Shown here one piece after another: positions 5,343-60,676 of a stretch of DNA of 64,000 nt. How positions within the stretch are numbered: the first letter of the stretch is position 1; each line of letters opens with the position of its first letter. Under the pieces are notes generated by a model. That model saw nothing but the letters and a program-made list of their open reading frames with translations. It had not been told where the DNA came from and ran no database searches. A program made the position numbers and the translations under genes. The DNA is from Nitrospirales bacterium (GTDB lineage Bacteria; Nitrospirota; Nitrospiria; Nitrospirales; UBA8639): contig OY820905.2 in NCBI GenBank assembly GCA_963555755.3, forward strand, positions 160,001-224,000, in the 5' to 3' direction.

Positions 5343-5800
5343 ACTGGTCGGTTTTCTTGTTTGGGAATGACCCACGAGGAGTCAGAGCTGACTTGGATAA
5401 AACCGGTGATTTCCAAAACATGGGTTCCCTGTTTCCACAACAAAGAAAGTGTAACAGATATCATGAGCAATCCAAAGGATCTGGAGCCAATTTGGCGAAC
5501 GAGTGTGTTAATACAAATCCAGATGGAGATCGAATGGCTAGGCTTCGGGATCCTGCAAAAAAATGTCATGAACACTCGTACAGGTCTTTCCTTTTTTTTT
5601 CTTGTTTCTTCTTGTCCCGGTCTTGTTCTTGGCATTGCTAGCAACTCCGCTCCAGGCCTGAGATGGAAAATGATTAAGGGTTTTTTGAATTTCTCCGACA
5701 AAGGAACAATGAGCCGTGATAGGTCTTGTCTCGGGTGTTGAATCGATAACGAACGAAATGACCATGGATCAATGGCAACGAAACTTACGGTGTTGGTGAA

Positions 5801-5979
5801 GGGTTCGCGCAACAATAACTTCCTATGTTTGGGTGTTGAGGCGCCTATCTGGCAAGGCGCGAGGACTGCGCATACTCCTCGTATGGAAAGGACGAGCAAC
5901 GCCGCCAAACGGGATGGATCGACGCCCAAACATAGCCCAAACATAGCCCAAACATAGGATATTATTGTTGCGCGTACCC
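5801..5979. mobile_element. MITE family A copy (reverse orientation) with internal 11-bp triplication
   Basis: TIR GGGTTCGCGCAACAATAA / TTATTGTTGCGCGTACCC; homologous to 25042-25199 and 35974-36130; GCCCAAACATA x3 at 5924-5956. Confidence 0.85.
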
Positions 5980-6011
5980 TACAAGGAGGAAATCACCTCT
6001 ATCCCTTAATA

Positions 6012-7040: not shown

Positions 7041-7254
7041 GGGAATGTTGAAAAAAGCCGCCAGGGGCGTTCTCGCCCTTTTGTCGTGCTCACGTACTAT
7101 GAGTACGCTCCGCGCGTCAAAAGGGCTGCGGCCTTGCTGGATAGACCCTTCGGAAAGACTCAGGGCATGCTTTTTTGAACATTCCCTCCCACTGATGCAA
7201 GCAGGCTTACCTGGAGCATCTATGGGTCATGAACCTGAAATATTCAACAGACCC
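7041..7254. mobile_element. MITE family B copy (core 7041-7186 plus tail ending in a second TIR)
   Basis: GGGAATGTTGAAAAA...TTTTTGAACATTCCC then ~68 bp to TTCAACAGACCC; homologous to 7595, 29260, 60367. Confidence 0.8.
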
Positions 7255-8841: not shown

Positions 8842-9004
8842 CCTAGAAACGGCAGTTGGGCGCAAAAAAGACGTGCAAGATATTGGTGTGCATGGTGAAA
8901 TACAAAAAGTCGTGGTCACCTCGGTGGTGATGAGACATTTTTGTATTTTGCCAGGTGCGCCAAGAGCTTGCGCGGACTTTTGTGATCCAACTGCCGATTC
9001 TAGG
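8842..9004. mobile_element. MITE family C (163 bp, IS1380-like ends), intact copy
   Basis: TIR CCTAGAAACGGCAGTTGG / CCAACTGCCGATTCTAGG; 5-bp TSD TTGAA at 8837-8841 and 9005-9009. Confidence 0.92.
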
Positions 9005-24199: not shown

Positions 24200-25042
24200 A
24201 TGGCCTCGACCGATGATTTGGCCCAACCTGCCTGCCCTCACCGATTTGTCGGCATCGTATGTTGGGGGCTCTTCCTCGTGATGTTGTCTAGCTGTACCAC
24301 TGTTCCGGTCCCTCAAACTTCCCCAGTTTCCTCGGAGACATCTGCAAAGATCATTGAAACATTGCAAGCGCGAGAGGCGAATGTGGTCAGCCTCAAAGGC
24401 CTCTTTGAAGCAGAGCTTGATGGGAAGGGCATGGCTTTTGCGCCCTCTCTTCAGGGCACGATTCTCTACCAACGTCCGGATCAATTTCGTATCAAAGGCT
24501 TTACCCGGTTTGGGGGGTTGGTGTTTGATTTTGTCCTGTCTCATGGTTTGTATGCGCTTCGCGTGAAGAATCAGCCAAGGCCAATTGTTGGCGGAAGTGA
24601 TGATTTTCAGAGGTTGGGAGAATTGCGTCTGCCTGTGCTTTTGAGTTTGCGAGCGATCGAGGTTCTATTAGGAAAATTGCCATTGGTCGCTGAAAATTCT
24701 CTCGCGGTGCAGCAGGGGGATGAGACGTATCAATTTGATATTCCATCCGATTCAAGGACGAATCCGTCAACCCTTTCCCAACGCATTGTGATCGATCAGC
24801 GTTCCTTGCATGTTCGACAATTGGATTATGTGAATTCCGAAGGAGAGTCTGTCGTGTCCATTCGTACATCGGATTTCCGCCTTGTTCGTGATGGATCACA
24901 GGTTGAGTCCGGTACCATTCTGTTGCCATTTGGTGTCCAAGCCGAAGATCATGTGGAAGCCGGAAGTGTGGTGTTGGAATTTATGGAAATCATTGTCAAT
25001 GAACCTCTCGATAAACAGGTGTTTACCCTCGCGGCTTTTTAG
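24200..25042 (+). CDS. Lipoprotein, LolA/LolB-like fold
   Basis: Lipobox LSSC; beta-rich sequence; fold assignment is inference. Confidence 0.65.
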   Translation: MASTDDLAQPACPHRFVGIVCWGLFLVMLSSCTTVPVPQTSPVSSETSAKIIETLQAREANVVSLKGLFEAELDGKGMAFAPSLQGTILYQRPDQFRIKGFTRFGGLVFDFVLSHGLYALRVKNQPRPIVGGSDDFQRLGELRLPVLLSLRAIEVLLGKLPLVAENSLAVQQGDETYQFDIPSDSRTNPSTLSQRIVIDQRSLHVRQLDYVNSEGESVVSIRTSDFRLVRDGSQVESGTILLPFGVQAEDHVEAGSVVLEFMEIIVNEPLDKQVFTLAAF

Positions 25043-25199
25043 GGCTCGCACAAGAATAACTTCCCCTGTTTGGGCGTCGATCCATCCCGTCTGGCGGCGT
25101 TGCTCGTCCTTTCCCTACCGAGGAGTATGCGCAGTCCTCGCGCCTTGCCAGACAGGTGTTTCAGCACCCAAACAGGGGAGTTTATTCTTGTGCGAACCC
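25042..25199. mobile_element. MITE family A (158 bp)
   Basis: TIR GGG(C/T)TCGCACAAGAATAA; TTA duplicated at 25039-25041 and 25200-25202. Confidence 0.9.
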
Positions 25200-25233
25200 T
25201 TAGCCGTGTGCACAATCGGAGAAACGGTTGGAC

Positions 25234-25923
25234 ATGAAAATTCTGGCTGTTGAAACGGCGACACGTTGTCACAGTGTGGCCATTGTTGATGATCATCAGG
25301 TGCTGGCCGAAGAAACGGATCCCGATTGTGCTTCGCATGCGAGTGTCTTGGTTCCCACCATTGATCGTCTTCTGCAATCCCTTGGCCTGGTGGTCAACCA
25401 ACTTGATGGCTTAGCCGTTTCTTTGGGACCGGGATCGTTTACCGGTTTGCGCGTTGGGCTTTCCACAATGATGGGATTTCGTGTTGCCACGCAGCTTCCT
25501 CTAGTGACCGTCCCGACGTTGGAGGGGATGGCGTGGAATATGAGGGGGGAGAATAAACCCGTCTGCCCCATCTTAAAAGCAAGTCGAGGTGATGTGTATT
25601 GGGCCTTATTTCAGTGGAAAGGCGACCAGCTTGAACGCGTGAGCGAGGATCGCCATGGACCATTATTGCAACTTATTGATTCTATTGAAAATGCAACCAT
25701 TCTATTTGGTGAGGGCTGGTTGGCGCACGCTTCTGATTTACATAAATTGCTAGGTGGAAAAGCCATCTCAGGGCCGGATGAGGCCATGCAGCCCTCGGCA
25801 ATTAGTGTGGCATTTTCCAGCTTGTCATCCTTCCGTTCAAGGCAGTATGCTGGGGGGCAACTCTCCCCTCGGTATATTCAACGTGCTGAAGCCGAAGTGC
25901 AATGGGAGGCTAAGGGCCTGTGA
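25234..25923 (+). CDS. tsaB: tRNA t6A biosynthesis protein TsaB
   Basis: MKILAVETAT, GPGSFTGLRVG, PRYIQ; precedes rimI. Confidence 0.93.
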   Translation: MKILAVETATRCHSVAIVDDHQVLAEETDPDCASHASVLVPTIDRLLQSLGLVVNQLDGLAVSLGPGSFTGLRVGLSTMMGFRVATQLPLVTVPTLEGMAWNMRGENKPVCPILKASRGDVYWALFQWKGDQLERVSEDRHGPLLQLIDSIENATILFGEGWLAHASDLHKLLGGKAISGPDEAMQPSAISVAFSSLSSFRSRQYAGGQLSPRYIQRAEAEVQWEAKGL

Positions 25924-26093
25924 AAAAATTACTTGGACAACATCGCGCCCAGATTTGGGTCAGATTTGGACGTAACGATTGAGAAAAAACCGAGCCATAG
26001 CATGCCTATGTTGAGGTTTTTTTGATTGAGGCACGTTTAAAGATGGCCCGAAGATGGGATGCGATGTTGTCCAAGTAATTTTTTCACCGGCCC
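25914..26093. mobile_element. MITE family D (180 bp) in the tsaB 3' end
   Basis: Long TIR GGGCC(T/G)GTGAAAAAATTACTTGGACAACATCGC; TAA TSD at 25911-25913 and 26094-26096. Confidence 0.9.
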
Positions 26094-26132
26094 TAAAGCC
26101 CGTAAAGCATCTATTTCAAATTCAAACTGATT

Positions 26133-29259: not shown

Positions 29260-29480
29260 GGGAATGTTGAAAAAGGGCGTCAGCGGCGTTCTCGGCCCTT
29301 TATCGTGCTCACGTACTATGAGTACGCTCCGCGCGCCAAAGCGCCTGCGGCCTTGCTGAGCGCACCCCCCGCCTCCGCGAGGGCATGCTTTTTGAACATC
29401 CCCTGTCGCTCTTGTAATTTCCTGAGATGTATCACCTATGAACCGTATTATGAGAATTTCTCTGGTTCTTCAACAGTCCC
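29260..29480. mobile_element. MITE family B copy
   Basis: Core 29260-29403 plus tail ending TTCAACAGTCCC. Confidence 0.8.
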
Positions 29481-32205: not shown

Positions 32206-33191
32206 CCGCTACAAAAAAAGAATCATATCATAGAGGAAAGGGCTGGTACAGTCGATGAGGAAATTCAATAATCGGATCATTCTTGAGGATTTTTTTTCTC
32301 TTTTAAGAAGGCTGGTCAATCCATGGTGATAAGAACTTTGAGCGTTCCACGTGTGGTTGCGCATTCCATGGCGTCTATTCCACGGTCGAGTGTATATCGA
32401 GCGTGGATGAGTGGTTCAACACTGACCTGGGTGTGTTGAAGGAGTTCTATGGCTTGGGGGAACAGCCCACAACGGGAACCCACCAGATTTATTTCGTGCA
32501 CCACTAAGAAGGTGAAGTCGAATGTGGTTTGCCCATGGTAGGTGGACTTCAGCACAATGGTGCCTCGTGGACGAACGAGTTGGCTGGCTAATTTGAGTCC
32601 ATCTGGGGTGCCGGTGGCTTCGATCACGGTATCCACGTCTGGTGAAATATTTGCAGCCTGGATGGTGGTGTGAATGCCTTGCTGTGTGAGCAAGGCTAAT
32701 TTTTCCGGATGGTGGCCGATGACACTGAGTTCGCATTGCGTGGGCTGTAACACTTGCGCACAGAGTAGGCCCAGCTTTCCATCGCCAATGACGACGACTC
32801 GATCAGTTGAGGCAATGGGTACTTGTGTGAGGATTTGGCAGGCTGCCGCTAGTGGCTCGATGAACACAGCCTGATCATTAGAGATCTCTTCTGGCAAGGG
32901 ATTCAGATTTTCGACGGGAAGGCACAGGTAGTCCGCGAAGGCCCCCATCCCGTCGGTCAATTCCCAGTGTGGTTCGGTTAGGACAGTGGGTGAGGCGCCC
33001 GGCCTGGCATGTTGGGCAGGTTCGGCAGGTGGCATTGATTTCTCCTACCACTCTTTTCCCCGTGAGGTGTTCATGTCCCATGGCTTGTTCAACCTAGACA
33101 TTATGTATTGACCTGCCCAATCTTCAGGCACGTGGGGTAAGCTACGGGGGAATCACCCGGAGTTTACAACCACCATGAAGGAGGACAGGGC

Positions 33192-34316
33192 ATGAACCAG
33201 TTTCACAAGTTTGTTGGGTTGGACACACACAAGGACACGATTGCGGTGGCGGTGAGTGAGGCGAATGGGGGGCCCACCCGGTACTATGGTGAAATTTCAA
33301 ACACGCCCAAGGCGCTGGCCAAGTTGGTCAAGACCCTGACCGCCCAAGGGGACGCGGTGTCATTTTGTTATGAGGCCGGCCCGTGTGGCTATGGGATCTA
33401 TCGACAACTCACGGCGTTGGGCCAGGCTTGCGCGGTGGTGGCGCCGTCCCTGATCCCCACGAAACCGGGCGACCGAGTGAAGACGGATCGGCGCGACAGT
33501 GAATCGCTGTCCCGGTTGCATCGGGCAGGCGAGCTCACAGCCGTCTGGGTGCCGGATCAGGAGCAGGAAGCGATGCGGGATCTCACGCGAGCGCGGGAAG
33601 ATATGAAAGGGCTGGAACGGATCACCAAACAACGGCTCAATGCGTTTCTGCTTCGGCATGGCCGCAACTATGATCGGGGAAAATGTCGTTGGACCCAGGC
33701 GCATAGCCGCTGGTTGGCAGGCCTGAAGTTTGAGAACACGGTGCAACAGATTGTCTTTCAAGAATATATAGAGGCGGTGAAGCAGGCCGCAGGCCGCGTG
33801 TCCGGGTTGGAACACGAGATGGCGCAAGCGCTAAAGACCTGGGAGCTGGCCCCAATGGTCGAGGCCCTGATGGCCCTGCGCGGGGTGAAGCTGATCACCG
33901 CCATGACCGTGCTGGCAGAACTGGGGGACCTCAGTCGTTTTACCTCCCCGTCGCAACTGATGGCCTATCTGGGGCTGGTGCCTCGTGAACACTCCAGTGG
34001 CCAGACCCGGCGGCGCGGCGGGATCACCAAGACGGGTAACGGCCATGTGCGGCGGGTGCTGGTCGAAGCCGCCTGGGGATACCGGTTCCCGGCTCGTAAG
34101 ACTGCGCATCTGCAACGGCGGGCCACACAGACGTCCGCAGCCGTGCAGGCCATCGCCTGGAAAGCCCAGAAGCGATTGTGCGGGCGCTATCGGCATCTGC
34201 TGGCGGCCGGGAAACTCACGGTGCAGGCTTGTACGGCTGTGGCCCGGGAGTTGGCGGGGTTTATCTGGGCGATTGCGTGTGAAGTCCTGAACCAACCGGC
34301 TGTGAACACTCGGTAA
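33192..34316 (+). CDS. IS110 DEDD recombinase/transposase
   Basis: GLDTHK, YEAG, KTDRRD (DEDD), GLVPREHSSG catalytic Ser region. Confidence 0.96.
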   Translation: MNQFHKFVGLDTHKDTIAVAVSEANGGPTRYYGEISNTPKALAKLVKTLTAQGDAVSFCYEAGPCGYGIYRQLTALGQACAVVAPSLIPTKPGDRVKTDRRDSESLSRLHRAGELTAVWVPDQEQEAMRDLTRAREDMKGLERITKQRLNAFLLRHGRNYDRGKCRWTQAHSRWLAGLKFENTVQQIVFQEYIEAVKQAAGRVSGLEHEMAQALKTWELAPMVEALMALRGVKLITAMTVLAELGDLSRFTSPSQLMAYLGLVPREHSSGQTRRRGGITKTGNGHVRRVLVEAAWGYRFPARKTAHLQRRATQTSAAVQAIAWKAQKRLCGRYRHLLAAGKLTVQACTAVARELAGFIWAIACEVLNQPAVNTR

Positions 34317-34361
34317 GACCTGAGCGAACTGACTGGTTAGCACCACCATGCACACAAGGAA

Positions 34362-34573
34362 TATCCAGCCAGTCTTTGGGCCAGGGCAGGGGCGGCCGGT
34401 GGGAGAATCCTCGGCGTTTCTATGAGGCGCTCAACAGAACTGAGACGACCCTCGATCCTAGAGAGAGGCAGCTCCACGACGAAGAGAGGTCAGGCGGTGT
34501 CGACCCGCGTATATCAGAGTGATCCACCGTCGTTGATTGCCACCCCTGCCCTGTGCCAAGGACTGGCTGGATA
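34362..34573 (+). ncRNA. Predicted bridge/seek RNA of the IS110 element
   Basis: Long closing stem (34362-34396 with 34539-34573) enclosing two stem-internal loop-stem domains whose loops match target and donor sequences. Confidence 0.85.
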
Positions 34574-34983
34574 AAGCCAGAACGGATGCGACATTGAACA
34601 CTTGATTACCAATAGTTGACAGGTCAATACATATCAGAAACGGCAGTTGGGCGCAAAAAAGCCGTGTAAGCTATTGGTGTGCATGGTGAAATAAAAAAAG
34701 TCGTAGTCACCTTCGTGGTGATGAGACATTTTTTTATTTTGCCAGGTGCGCCAATAGCTTGCGCGGACTTTTGTGATCCAACTGCCGTTTCTAGGTTCAA
34801 CTGTGCCCACGAACTCATGTCCTAACGTGCCACGAAAATCCCTGTAGCCTTTTACCAACTGAATGTCTGTGGCGCACACGCCGGCTTGGTGTACACGAAC
34901 GAGGGCCTCTCCAGGCGGAGCGTTGGGCTTGCTGTATTTGGCTTCCAATCGGAGGGATGGGTCGAGTCGTACTGCTCTCATGT

Positions 34984-35719: not shown

Positions 35720-35973
35720 CTTCGAGTTTCCGACACGATTTCCCTTCAATTTTTCGTGCCTCCTTATCTTCTTTTCCATTTTCCATAGCTGTTTAACCTG
35801 GCTTGAGCCTTTGAAGTCCTGAGGGTATTTCCCTCTCTCTTTCTTCTGTTTCCCGCCTTTCGCTTTACGCATCACGCTTCACGAATTTGTTTAACTCTTT
35901 TCATCTGCGGTTCCCCAAAGGACCTTGGACGCCTGTAAGCCCATACCGCTACTCGCGTGAGTGTAGATCCTTT

Positions 35974-36130
35974 GGGTTCGCGCAAGAATAACTTCCCCTG
36001 TTTGGGCGTCGATCCATCCCGTCTGGCGGCGTTGCTCGTCCTTTCCATACGAGGAGTATGCGCAGTCCTCGCGCCTTGCCAGACAGGTGTCTCCGCACCC
36101 AAACAGGGGAAGTTATTTTTGCACGAACCC
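35974..36130. mobile_element. MITE family A
   Basis: Near-identical to 25042-25199. Confidence 0.9.
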
Positions 36131-36364
36131 TTGGACTCGTGTTCTTGCCCAGGTTAGTGCAACTATGCGAAAGTCTAGGCGAAATGCTTGAATAGTGGTG
36201 AGCGGGGTTCTCTTTGAAGAGATTGAAGAATATAGTGTAGAATCCACTCAAGTTGTGTAGTGTGACGTCGGGCTTCAACAGATACGTGGACCATTTCATT
36301 TCTAATTTTCTTAGACCATCAGGACTGATCGGTCTAAGTCCCTCACTTTAAAGGATAATTTCTT

Positions 36365-38878: not shown

Positions 38879-39364
38879 ATGATTCAAGCGGCCATCATCG
38901 TTGTGAGCAGTAAGATCCTCAGTGGGGAATCTTCAGATAAGGGCCGTGCTGATCTTGAACAGTACTTGGGTGACAATGAGATCCAGATCGTGGCGTACAA
39001 AATCGTTCCTGATGATCGGAAGGAAATCCGCGAGTGTTTATTGTCGATCTGTTCGACAGTTGCCCCTCAGGTGATTTTAACTTTAGGGGGAACGGGCGTT
39101 CGTCCTAATGATTGGGCGCCAGAAGCCACGCGTGATGTCATTGAAAAAGAGATTCCGGGGATCGCTGAAGTGATGCGCGCCGAGAGTTTGAAGAAAGTCA
39201 AAACCGCGATGTTGTCGCGCGGGACGGCTGGTATCCGGGGATCGACGATTATTGTCAATCTTCCTGGAAGTCCAAAAGGTGCGAGAGAAAATCTCATGAC
39301 CTTTTTACCCATACTCGATCATACAGTTGAAAAAGCGTCGAAGGTGACGCAGCCTATTTCATAG
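38879..39364 (+). CDS. mog: MogA/MoaB molybdopterin adenylyltransferase
   Basis: GGTGVRPND.APEAT, AMLSR, NLPGSP. Confidence 0.9.
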   Translation: MIQAAIIVVSSKILSGESSDKGRADLEQYLGDNEIQIVAYKIVPDDRKEIRECLLSICSTVAPQVILTLGGTGVRPNDWAPEATRDVIEKEIPGIAEVMRAESLKKVKTAMLSRGTAGIRGSTIIVNLPGSPKGARENLMTFLPILDHTVEKASKVTQPIS

Positions 39365-39368
39365 CTAA

Positions 39369-39548
39369 GGACCTGCGAGAAAATAACTTGATCAATATCG
39401 CGCCAAGATTTGGGTCGGATTTGGACGGAACGATTGAGAAACACCCGAGGCATAGCACAGCTATGGTGAGGGTGTTTCGATTGAGGCCCGTTCAAAGATG
39501 GCCCGAAGATTGGATGCGAGATTGATCAAGTTATTCTCTCGCAGGTCC
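39369..39548. mobile_element. MITE family D (180 bp)
   Basis: TIR GGACCTGCGAGA.AATAACTTGATCAAT; TAA TSD. Confidence 0.92.
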
Positions 39549-39606
39549 TAAGGTTCAGTTATTTGGAACGTATTCAGAATAACCCCTTATTCACTATCGG
39601 TCTTGG

Positions 39607-43899: not shown

Positions 43900-44062
43900 C
43901 CTAGAAACAGCAATTGGATCACAAAAGTCCGCGCAAGCTCTTGGCGCACCTGATAAAATACAAAAATGTCTTATCACCACCGAGGTGACTACGACTTTTT
44001 GTATTTCACCATGCACACCAATATCTTACACGGCTTTTTTGCGCCCAACTGCCGTTTCTAGG
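43900..44062. mobile_element. MITE family C (163 bp, reverse orientation)
   Basis: TTGAA TSD at 43895-43899 and 44063-44067. Confidence 0.92.
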
Positions 44063-44972: not shown

Positions 44973-44980
44973 AATCTTAA

Positions 44981-45160
44981 GGACCTGAGAGAAAATAACT
45001 TGATCAATCTCGCATCCAATCTTCAGGCCATCTTTGAACGGGCCTTAATCGAAAAACCCTCAACATAGCTGTGCTATGCCTCGCGTTTTTCTCAATCGTT
45101 CCGTCCAAATCTAACCCAAATCTTGGCGCGAAATTGTTCAAGTTATTTTCTCTCAGGTCC
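44981..45160. mobile_element. MITE family D (180 bp) between convergent genes
   Basis: TAA TSD at 44978-44980 and 45161-45163; overlaps the ureD stop codon. Confidence 0.92.
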
Positions 45161-46071
45161 TAATAGCGGCGTAAGGTGGGAAGCGCGGTTCCCCATAGGT
45201 TCATTCGCACGACACTCCACAATTCTTCCCATACGGTATTCAATTCGGGAGCAGAGCGCGTCACGACTTTGACAACCAATCCCGGAAGGGAAGTTTCTGA
45301 TACTCCTCCTAAGACTTGACGGGAGTTTCTCTCGATCACGGTTACTAATTCTTCTTTGGTTTGGTCCCAAGTTGAAGAGGGGAACTTGTCGCTCACGATG
45401 AAAAGGGATCCGACATAGTTCCAATTCTGCTCAAACGTCAAAGAGAGTGTGTCTTGGGTTGGGGCAAGGGCATACCGTTCTTCAAGCGATTTTCCATCCG
45501 AAAGCGTGATCTTGATCTGATTCGAGAAATGGGAAAAGGCCCACCGTTCTCCTCGGGCAACTCGTCCAGCCGCCAAGGCATCCCAAAGGATAAGAGAAGC
45601 CCCTGCATCGAGCCGCACGGTTATCGTTTGGTCAAAATGCGAACTTGCAAAAGGAATCGTGAGTTCAGGCACCCATTCGAGAATGGCGTTGGGACCGACG
45701 CTCACATCAATCGATTGGACCGCCGGGCTCTGAAGAGTACGATAGATCTTTGTTGCGGAAGGTGTGGTGAAAAGAACGTGTGTATCTTCTCGCAGCTTCG
45801 CTACCAGAGAAAGATCATCTCCTCCCAGGAAACCCCCAGAGGGGTTGGTAAAGAATGTTGTGGCGCATCCCGTGTCATCGAGATACAGGGGAGGAAAGGA
45901 ATACCAAGGATGAGAAAATCGCGAATGGGTGAGGACGGTCTTGCCATCCCGCTTGGCGTATTCTAAGGAAAGTTCACTCTTTTGGCGTTGGGGGGCAATT
46001 TGATCGGGGGATGGCCATCCCTGGAATCCCTGACGAATTTTTGTAGAATTCAGAGTTTGTTGTTGAGACAT
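45160..46071 (-). CDS. ureD: Urease accessory protein UreD
   Basis: NPSGGFLGGD, TTPSATKIYR, GRVARGERW. Confidence 0.93.
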   Translation of the reverse strand: MSQQQTLNSTKIRQGFQGWPSPDQIAPQRQKSELSLEYAKRDGKTVLTHSRFSHPWYSFPPLYLDDTGCATTFFTNPSGGFLGGDDLSLVAKLREDTHVLFTTPSATKIYRTLQSPAVQSIDVSVGPNAILEWVPELTIPFASSHFDQTITVRLDAGASLILWDALAAGRVARGERWAFSHFSNQIKITLSDGKSLEERYALAPTQDTLSLTFEQNWNYVGSLFIVSDKFPSSTWDQTKEELVTVIERNSRQVLGGVSETSLPGLVVKVVTRSAPELNTVWEELWSVVRMNLWGTALPTLRRY

Positions 46072-60366: not shown

Positions 60367-60604
60367 AGGGCTGTTGAATAATTCACGTCAATAGCCAATA
60401 AACGCCTCAGATGAGCTCCACATCGTCAGTGGGAGGGAATGTTCAAAAAAGCATGCCCTGAGTCTTTCCGAAGGGTCTATCCAGTCCTGTCCTGAGCAGA
60501 GTCGAAGGAAAGGCCGCAGCCCTTTTGACGCGCGGAGCGTACTCATAGTACGTGAGCACGGCAAAAGGGCGAGAACGCCGCTGGCGGCTTTTTTCAACAT
60601 TCCC
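60367..60604. mobile_element. MITE family B copy (reverse) with an extra nested REP
   Basis: Homologous to 7041-7254 including the tail; insertion CCTGTCCTGAGCAGAGTCGAAGGA near 60486-60509. Confidence 0.8.
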
Positions 60605-60676
60605 TGAAAAGGTTGGTAGGAAGGTATTGCAGGTAGACCAGGTGGTATAATTTTATAATTGTCAGCGGATAAAAAC

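Follow-up and report, generated by a model that had tools for sequence, protein, structure and literature searches.

An IS110-family insertion sequence three bases inside a MITE end in a Nitrospirales genome, likely directed there by a two-loop guide RNA

The 64,000-nucleotide stretch analysed here (the window: positions 160,001 to 224,000 of contig OY820905.2, GenBank assembly GCA_963555755.3, from a Nitrospirales bacterium) contains an intact insertion sequence (IS) of the IS110 family that lies 3 bp inside the end of a MITE (miniature inverted-repeat transposable element). It is very likely guided there by a two-loop RNA in its 3' end that pairs with about 10 bp around an AG dinucleotide, a reading that we favor because the target loop matches the MITE end, the genomic copies share one site and the guides of homologs covary with their flanks. 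Positions are those of the window, and the features of the element are given on the forward strand. From left to right the DNA comprises a TTCAA target-site duplication of the host MITE (33088..33092), the first three bases of the MITE terminal repeat, CCT (33093..33095), which comparison with empty MITE ends reveals to have been severed by the insertion, the IS itself (33096..34635; 1,540 bp if the core AG is assigned to the left end, as delimited by three identical copies with differing flanks), the 160-bp remainder of the MITE (34636..34795; 163 bp in all) and the second TTCAA (34796..34800). Because these two 5-mers are the MITE duplication, the MITE begins at CCTAG; the left one also provides target positions -5/-4. 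A preliminary description, made from the sequence alone, had bounded the element at 33088..34800, which includes the duplications and the host MITE in addition to the IS proper. Its placement of the insertion at AACCT-AGA in a MITE end was right as to the site, with the amendments that the junction is AG rather than AGA and that the AA belongs to the duplication.

The IS carries perfect 13-bp subterminal inverted repeats, conserved in homologs, which lie 7 bp from the left end (33103..33115) and 3 bp from the right end (34620-34632). This fits the rule for IS1111-type elements, namely 7-bp left and 3-bp right extensions with subterminal repeats of 11-13 bp (PMC11187229). The recombinase gene (33192..34316, 374 aa) leaves 96 bp of non-coding DNA upstream, as against 319 bp downstream. 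Joining the ends in silico places a -35 hexamer, TTGACA (34616-34621, overlapping the right repeat; the two together span 34616..34632), 17 nt ahead of CATTAT in a promoter-like arrangement; no promoter-like site was found in the linear element.

The recombinase matches Pfam PF01548 and PF02371, i.e. a DEDD RuvC-like domain with a C-terminal Transposase_20 domain, and scores 273 bits against NCBIfam NF033542 (cut-off 140). Residues D11, E61, D99, D102 and S269 show no variation across 19 homologs and line up with those that are catalytic in ISCro4 and in IS621; the roles of these residues are described in PMC11208158. Judged by this combination of a DEDD domain and a Transposase_20 domain with the predicted catalytic serine, the element belongs to the IS110 family in the broad ISfinder sense. 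The closest named proteins are ISSfr2 (57% identity), ISEc45 (51%) and ISSso6 (48%); IS4321/IS5075 reach about 25% over 77% of the length. In a protein tree that contained a single core IS1111 protein the element groups with ISSfr2, ISEc45 and ISSso6 (support 99/99), with IS4321 outside on a long branch. At 374 aa and about 25% identity the protein falls outside the strict definition of the IS1111 group (330-350 aa, with a full-length relation to IS1111/IS4321), whereas the architecture, with subterminal repeats, a long downstream non-coding region and the order of the guides, is that of this group. The element is thus IS1111-like in architecture and stands outside the core IS1111 protein cluster, a kind of exception mentioned in PMC11187229. 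Close homologs occur in 2 of 60 related genomes, at looser identity in 18 of 400 genomes of the phylum, and commonly in metagenomes. The genome contig, C1, holds 23 IS110-type matches in all; among them are a family with approximately 11 copies (about 324 aa) and, at C1:70884 and C1:386069, two related elements.

The 3' end is predicted to encode a bridge/seek RNA (34362..34573) within a 35-nt closing stem (34362-34396/34539-34573) that is 89% paired and contributes most of the fold z-score of -6.05 for 34355-34580. A form with two open loops, one for the target and one for the donor, was recovered blind by RNAalifold from 36 diverged homologs, those without long insertions among 60 non-redundant ones. 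In this form 96.1% of the cells pair, compared to 35-47% in slid controls, and 12 of 25 pairs display compensatory change on both sides (6.5±1.2 in shuffles, 0/500). A covariance model, which includes the element's own sequence, matches at 34388-34542. Its scores are 89.8 bits in ISSfr2, 27.8 in ISEc45 and 71.8 in ISSso6, and it gives no match in IS4321; in the element's own genome it finds the three copies described below and one weak match beside a related transposase, that at C1:386069. A search of Rfam returned no relevant family and one chance miRNA match.

The target-binding domain (34402..34475), delimited by structure and by guide-flank covariation, contains guide 1 (34413-34421), the reverse complement of the core and right flank, and guide 2 (34455-34461), which has the same sense as the left flank and core; the complement of the top strand thus comes first and the match to the bottom strand follows. 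Guide 1 overlaps CGTTTCTA (34415-34422), and ATCCTAGA (34455-34462) matches the left flank at 7/8. The 8-nt and 7/8 matches noted in the preliminary description are real, as are all the guide and donor segment coordinates that were checked, and the stretch that covaries is about 10 bp, from -3 to +7. Homologous loci (identified by L numbers) were parsed in 165 cases, with the right flank and guide 1 available in 113. Over the 63 distinct guides, guide 1 agrees with the right flank at positions +3 to +7 in 266 of 315 comparisons, compared to 88.5±8.5 (maximum 122, 0/10,000) in shuffles; kin among the homologs are not independent, and the size of the effect is about 20 standard deviations. By position, from +3 to +9, guide and flank agree at rates of 0.91, 0.95, 0.93, 0.85, 0.48, 0.32 and 0.13, with +8 and +9 at chance level. 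For guide 2 (93 rows, 40 distinct guides) the left flank is matched at -2 in 35 of 40 cases (11.5 expected) and at -3 in 21 of 40 (10.3 expected), with -4 and beyond at chance. Pairing beyond +7 or -3 was accordingly rejected, and probably only about 10 bp of the target are read. A 3-nt AGA core was likewise rejected, as the third base varies with the guide across homologs; the core is AG, read as CT on the opposite strand, and at L151 core and guide change together. Additional loci inspected qualitatively have guides that match their flanks (L231, L254, L235/L250, L237/L251/L255); guide and flank mismatch in L249, and many further loci could not be parsed. A sub-branch (L117, L122, L100, L095, L091, L232, L233) has the guide shifted by one base and inserts in a short palindrome resembling REPs (repetitive extragenic palindromic sequences), with A|AG in place of T|AG.

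A structured non-coding end whose target loop is complementary to the two strands of the target, and covaries with both, indicates, at the level of comparative sequence, an RNA of the bridge/seek type programmed to the MITE end, as had been proposed. One could instead suppose that the protein or a hairpin of the MITE picks the target, with the loop match a by-product or relic: the MITE forms a long, imperfect palindrome, and the targets of IS1111 include folded structures (attC, REP). We regard this as very improbable, given that 63 different guides follow 63 different flanks and that a relative at a non-MITE site (L007) still matches its own guide.

Three copies of the IS, 100% identical across the whole query, are present in the 4.62-Mb genome. 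In all three the left junction is AACCT|AG and the right junction ATATC|AGAAACGGC; they are in the same orientation and lie 3 bp inside end A of the same MITE family, so that each occupies the CCT|AG site and none an unrelated one. In 3 of 3 copies insertion is thus specific for site and orientation; it uses a 2-nt core and produces no true duplication of the target. Given three of three copies at one base of the MITE end, and 347 MITE ends in the genome versus 61,786 TAG sites, use of this site by chance is excluded. Among homologs AG is found at 98 of 100 distinct junctions, the core being partly required by the parse. The host MITEs differ, one being 163 bp long, one a 429-bp composite and one truncated without a far end in about 5 kb, and by this evidence the copies are separate insertions; their identity suggests recent movement. 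The 100% identity and the common use of end A could also be explained by a single insertion that spread as an IS-MITE composite through the MITE transposase, or by collapse or duplication in the assembly. This is largely refuted by the host MITEs, which differ in internal sequence, length and flanks. Moreover, what the outer end retains resembles the terminal repeat over just 6 bp, end A has 106 of the 154 exact target sites in MITE ends, so that three of three at A needs no special cause, and the left junction is reproduced in contigs of sequencing runs X1 and X3; we therefore give this explanation hardly any credence. A preference for end A beyond its sequence was considered as well and rejected on the same count and on the use of end B by the relative L010.

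The target family is a true MITE, being short, non-coding and multicopy, with terminal inverted repeats and a target-site duplication. With up to 3 mismatches allowed and the 3 occupied ends counted, its 18-bp end motif occurs 347 times; type A accounts for 158 of these and type B for 142, and 47 are unclassified. Of 65 full-size pairs (162-163 bp), 44 have a perfect 5-bp duplication, mostly TTNAA, and the MITE is also present in 11 of 40 related genomes. The predicted target 10-mer CCTAGAAACG, which spans the covarying positions, has 158 exact sites in the genome, 154 of them in MITE ends (106 in end A and 34 in end B); with one mismatch allowed, 294 sites fall inside MITE ends. The three empty targets pointed out earlier in the window are all exact instances, at 8842 (+), 34786-34795 (-, the far end of the host MITE) and 44053-44062 (-), and two further MITE ends, at 8995-9004 and 43900-43909, have one mismatch. 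Apart from the far end of the host MITE, these belong to two empty MITE copies with targets free at both ends (8842..9004, forward strand; 43900..44062, reverse strand). Nested MITE composites of 322-328, 429, 488, 589, 612-617, 772, 882 and 934-937 bp are also seen (e.g. C1 812392-812820, 841698-842469 and 1992438-1993026), with other small repeats in fixed internal sites; they probably moved as units, because many keep a perfect 5-bp duplication. One composite (C1:3598950-3601057), with a matching outer duplication, has inside it a different IS110-family transposase gene of about 407 aa. Viral contigs gave 18 matches.

The preliminary description had further seen in the MITE a renewable safe harbor for the element. 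Of 88 empty MITE sites, 17 are within an open frame, compared to 543 of 1000 random sites, and the dehydrogenase gene at this locus was already broken by the MITE, which introduces an in-frame stop. A safe harbor is thus plausible from the distribution of sites, with selection for safety unsupported. The epithet "renewable" is unsupported here: no autonomous partner transposase of the MITE was found in the genome, where IS1380-type and other DDE elements have other ends, and among elements of 0.9-4 kb with MITE-like ends and a duplication, a list translated in part, none was seen with a cognate DDE transposase. An IS1380-type partner, suggested by the 5-bp duplication, was rejected: the genome has seven near-identical intact IS1380-type elements (e.g. 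C1:706533) with 5-bp duplications and ends unlike those of the MITE.

Examination of the relatives bears on how far the element is adapted to the MITE. Of five relatives with at least 75% identity, an AAAC-type guide and a visible right flank, four, which come from other samples, occupy the identical base in this MITE family (L014, 92% aa identity; L010, 87%; L017, 86%; L009, 75%) and one, L007, does not; in L002 just the left junction is seen to agree, and the guide of L018 is changed. Across homologs an inverted partner (at least 15/20) is found downstream of 13 of 64 right flanks, this locus included, compared to 1 of 64 in a shifted window and 6 of 57 left flanks; 11 of the 13 partnered flanks close, by eye, with a mirrored CTAG or TTAG. 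Open reading frames in the right flanks, the side surveyed, encode DDE transposases in 3 of 43 cases (L124, DUF772; L130, IS1380-type; L144, DDE_5), and in L088, L124, L130 and L144 different guides match the ends of other elements. These comparisons point to the tips of IS elements and MITEs as a common, non-universal target of the relatives. A 1.67-kb DDE element of this genome (C1 near 2920691 and 1336163) has ends that match the target of L006, L008, L086, L088 and L139; a search with the RNA model found no IS110 element carrying a guide of this type in the genome.

It is nevertheless quite possible, at somewhat less than an even chance in our estimate, that the guide simply reads short CCTAGAAAC-like words and that the link to the MITE reflects abundance and survival bias, with no adaptation to it. 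This explanation retains the RNA mechanism and disputes the safe harbor as an adaptation. It draws on the mere 10 or so covarying base pairs, on the terminal-repeat partner being confined to 13 of 64 homolog flanks, and on CTAG being the rarest 4-mer of the genome, with 303 of its 4,712 copies in MITE ends. It accounts less well for the same guide having been kept in relatives at 86-92% identity that are all in the same MITE family, and for the four loci just mentioned whose other guides match the ends of other elements. At the other extreme, we tentatively entertain the idea that the ISSso6/ISSfr2 branch might consist of "tip-chasing" parasites, which would repeatedly rewrite a 5-7-nt guide toward whichever IS or MITE family has expanded in the host, disable the end that they hit and retain a near-vestigial left donor guide. 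Such elements might combine a fixed (C/T)T-AG core with targets such as IS1380-, IS701- and IS1182/IS5-type ends, MITEs and REP-like palindromes, the donor being recognized through protein-read repeats. If true, this would amount to a record in nature, open to dating, of how guides evolve, and to a bridge-recombinase design of greater simplicity.

The donor-binding domain (34476..34533) has a strong 3' strand, ATATCAG (34511-34517), and a weak 5' strand, GTC (34489-34491), which pairs with left-end bases +2 to +4. The 3' strand, ATATC-AG, corresponds to the right end plus core, ATATCAGA lying at 34511-34518; across 65 rows it agrees with the right end at 0.89-1.0 per position, partly as a requirement of the parse. 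In L108 the 3' strand and the right end change together, and several homologs have a one-base mismatch. On the 5' side, GAGGTCAG (34486-34493) has 5/8 identity to the expected left-end guide, as was noticed at the outset, and over 72 rows this strand agrees with the left end at 0.83-0.88 for +2 to +4 and 0.79 for +6, and almost never at +1. With little donor variation among the homologs, L109 is compensatory and L111 discordant for the left donor guide. The weak 5' donor guide thus appears to be a trait of the whole family. The idea that the 5' donor strand copies the subterminal repeat was unsupported, as homologs with a changed repeat keep AAGTCA.

Several observations weigh against the RNA-guided, MITE-directed interpretation. 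The minimum-energy fold of the single sequence pairs both target guides with each other (-39.9 kcal/mol versus -29.3 for the open two-loop form); because this fold hides the guides, the open loops rest on comparative folding. The 5' donor guide matches the left end poorly. A handshake between the donor loop and target position 7 occurs in 23 of 71 cases (13.8 expected), a count confounded by kinship, as a shifted control is also raised (33 versus 21.6). The alignment of guide 1 with its flanks involved dropping 9 of 113 rows as out of register, which left 95 distinct pairs and the 63 distinct guides, and the parse demanded core-like letters, so that matches at the core and at -1 are partly built in. 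As to target choice, L007 shares its guide with L009 and yet occupies a site outside the MITE, and with one mismatch allowed there are 96 target sites outside MITE ends; both favor the reading of short words over adaptation to the MITE. A 36-bp eroded right-end fragment (C1:2801318-2801352), followed by GGAAAC, lies outside MITE ends and could be an old off-MITE insertion or the remnant of a relative. Neither a circle junction nor an empty-site joint was seen in runs X1, X3, X10 and X17, which are available as contigs and cannot show absence. Contigs of two RNA runs cover the 3' end (X10, 33814-34592; X17, 34230-34604); they come from one study, their strand and level are unreadable, and DNA may have been present. 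Contigs in all four runs share the donor hairpin and diverge at 34494 into another upstream RNA that is absent from the genome; these represent a related element in the same samples.

Taking these observations together, we propose that the ends of the element join into a circle, by analogy with IS621 and ISEc11, and that the junction would form the promoter TTGACA-17-CATTAT, from which both the recombinase and the RNA could be produced. The target loop would pair with both strands of CCT-AG-AAACG, and the donor loop would read mainly the right end, ATATC-AG, together with 3-4 bases of the left end, the subterminal repeats being probably read by the protein. Recombination at AG, presumably catalyzed by the DEDD/serine site, would then insert the element without a duplication. 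The MITE would offer about 150 exact and about 300 near-exact sites, mostly intergenic, from which a selective benefit might arise. Insertion separates the terminal 3 bp of the MITE from its body, and the copy hit is thereby probably immobilized.

Comparison with known systems places the element close to precedent. In Coxiella burnetii, 20 of 21 copies of IS1111 lie 10-20 bp inside QMITE2 (Wachter et al. 2018, PMC5896051), a case taken up in the review PMC10969869. There too a member of the IS110/IS1111 family is found near one end of a resident MITE, with 10-20 bp of MITE on its 5' side, whereas the target is described as a REP palindrome (GTAG) that lies in the MITE, with no mapping of a guide RNA in the text consulted (PMC5896051). 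The present element, in contrast, is found 3 bp into a terminal repeat that has a 5-bp duplication, and its guide match is backed by covariation. The seekRNA elements ISEc11, ISKpn4 and ISPa11 (Siddiquee 2024, PMC11187229) share the downstream RNA, the guide order, the 7- and 3-bp extensions, the junction promoter (predicted in the present element) and natural reprogramming among relatives, and differ in proteins of 330-350 aa in the core IS1111 cluster, as against 374 aa on another branch. The bridge recombinase IS621 (Durrant 2024, PMC11208160; Hiraizumi 2024, PMC11208158; structure PDB 8WT6) is weakly similar in protein (E 5e-7) and comparable in its RNA: it has two internal loops for target and donor, the same bottom-strand layout with a long first guide ending in the core CT and a short second guide, and a first donor guide that stops at C before an A linker. 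It also targets a multicopy REP repeat, as do others (PMC3184786, PMC12288879). It differs in having its RNA in the left end, no long subterminal repeats and a left donor guide that pairs over 8 nt, compared to 3-5 here. ISSfr2, ISEc45 and ISSso6, which have the nearest named proteins in the same clade and the same 3' RNA, carry other guides and have other targets; the subterminal repeat of ISSso6 measures 14 bp, and in both ISSfr2 and ISSso6 a match between the guides and the element's own flanks is visible by eye. A literature search turned up no mechanistic paper on this branch, whose RNAs may already be predicted in Durrant Supplementary Table 5. Partridge and Hall reportedly described in 2003 the insertion of IS4321/IS5075 in the terminal repeats of Tn21 family transposons. 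These elements resemble ours in subterminal inverted repeats, a 3' non-coding region and, reportedly, insertion in the terminal repeat of another mobile element, and are unlike it in the protein (about 25% identity, on the long branch outside the clade), in giving no match to the RNA model and in targeting an autonomous transposon.

The concept of RNA-guided IS110/IS1111 elements in REPs, transposon ends and a MITE is hence already known, and the novelty of the case was overrated, since Coxiella IS1111 already targets a MITE end. In the literature search, which covered supplements in part, no work was listed in which a guide is mapped onto the terminal repeat of a MITE, and the term "MITE" is absent from the preprint 10.64898/2026.08.14.744561. 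The value of the locus is that of a further example and a candidate tool, not of a new principle: it is a natural example, unusually easy to read, of a multicopy repeat as the target of an RNA-guided recombinase. The 63 guide-target pairs define the positions read, approximately -3 to +7, and point to a scaffold that would be compact and programmable and whose left donor guide is weak.

The host MITE splits a zinc alcohol-dehydrogenase-like gene on the reverse strand, whose 5' part (34801..34981) matches ADH_N and whose 3' part (32316..33087) matches ADH_zinc_N; the frame runs on across the MITE-free site. The gene (32316-34981) is broken in three ways, by the MITE with its in-frame stop, by the IS inside the MITE, and by a frameshift, likewise present in contigs of runs X1 and X3, within a short homopolymer near 32942-32946. 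At least three other families of short inverted-repeat elements are present in the window, represented by 25909-26096, 39364-39551 and 44976-45161; by 5797-5983, 25039-25210 and 35971-36141; and by 7041-7139, 29260-29358 and 60510-60608.

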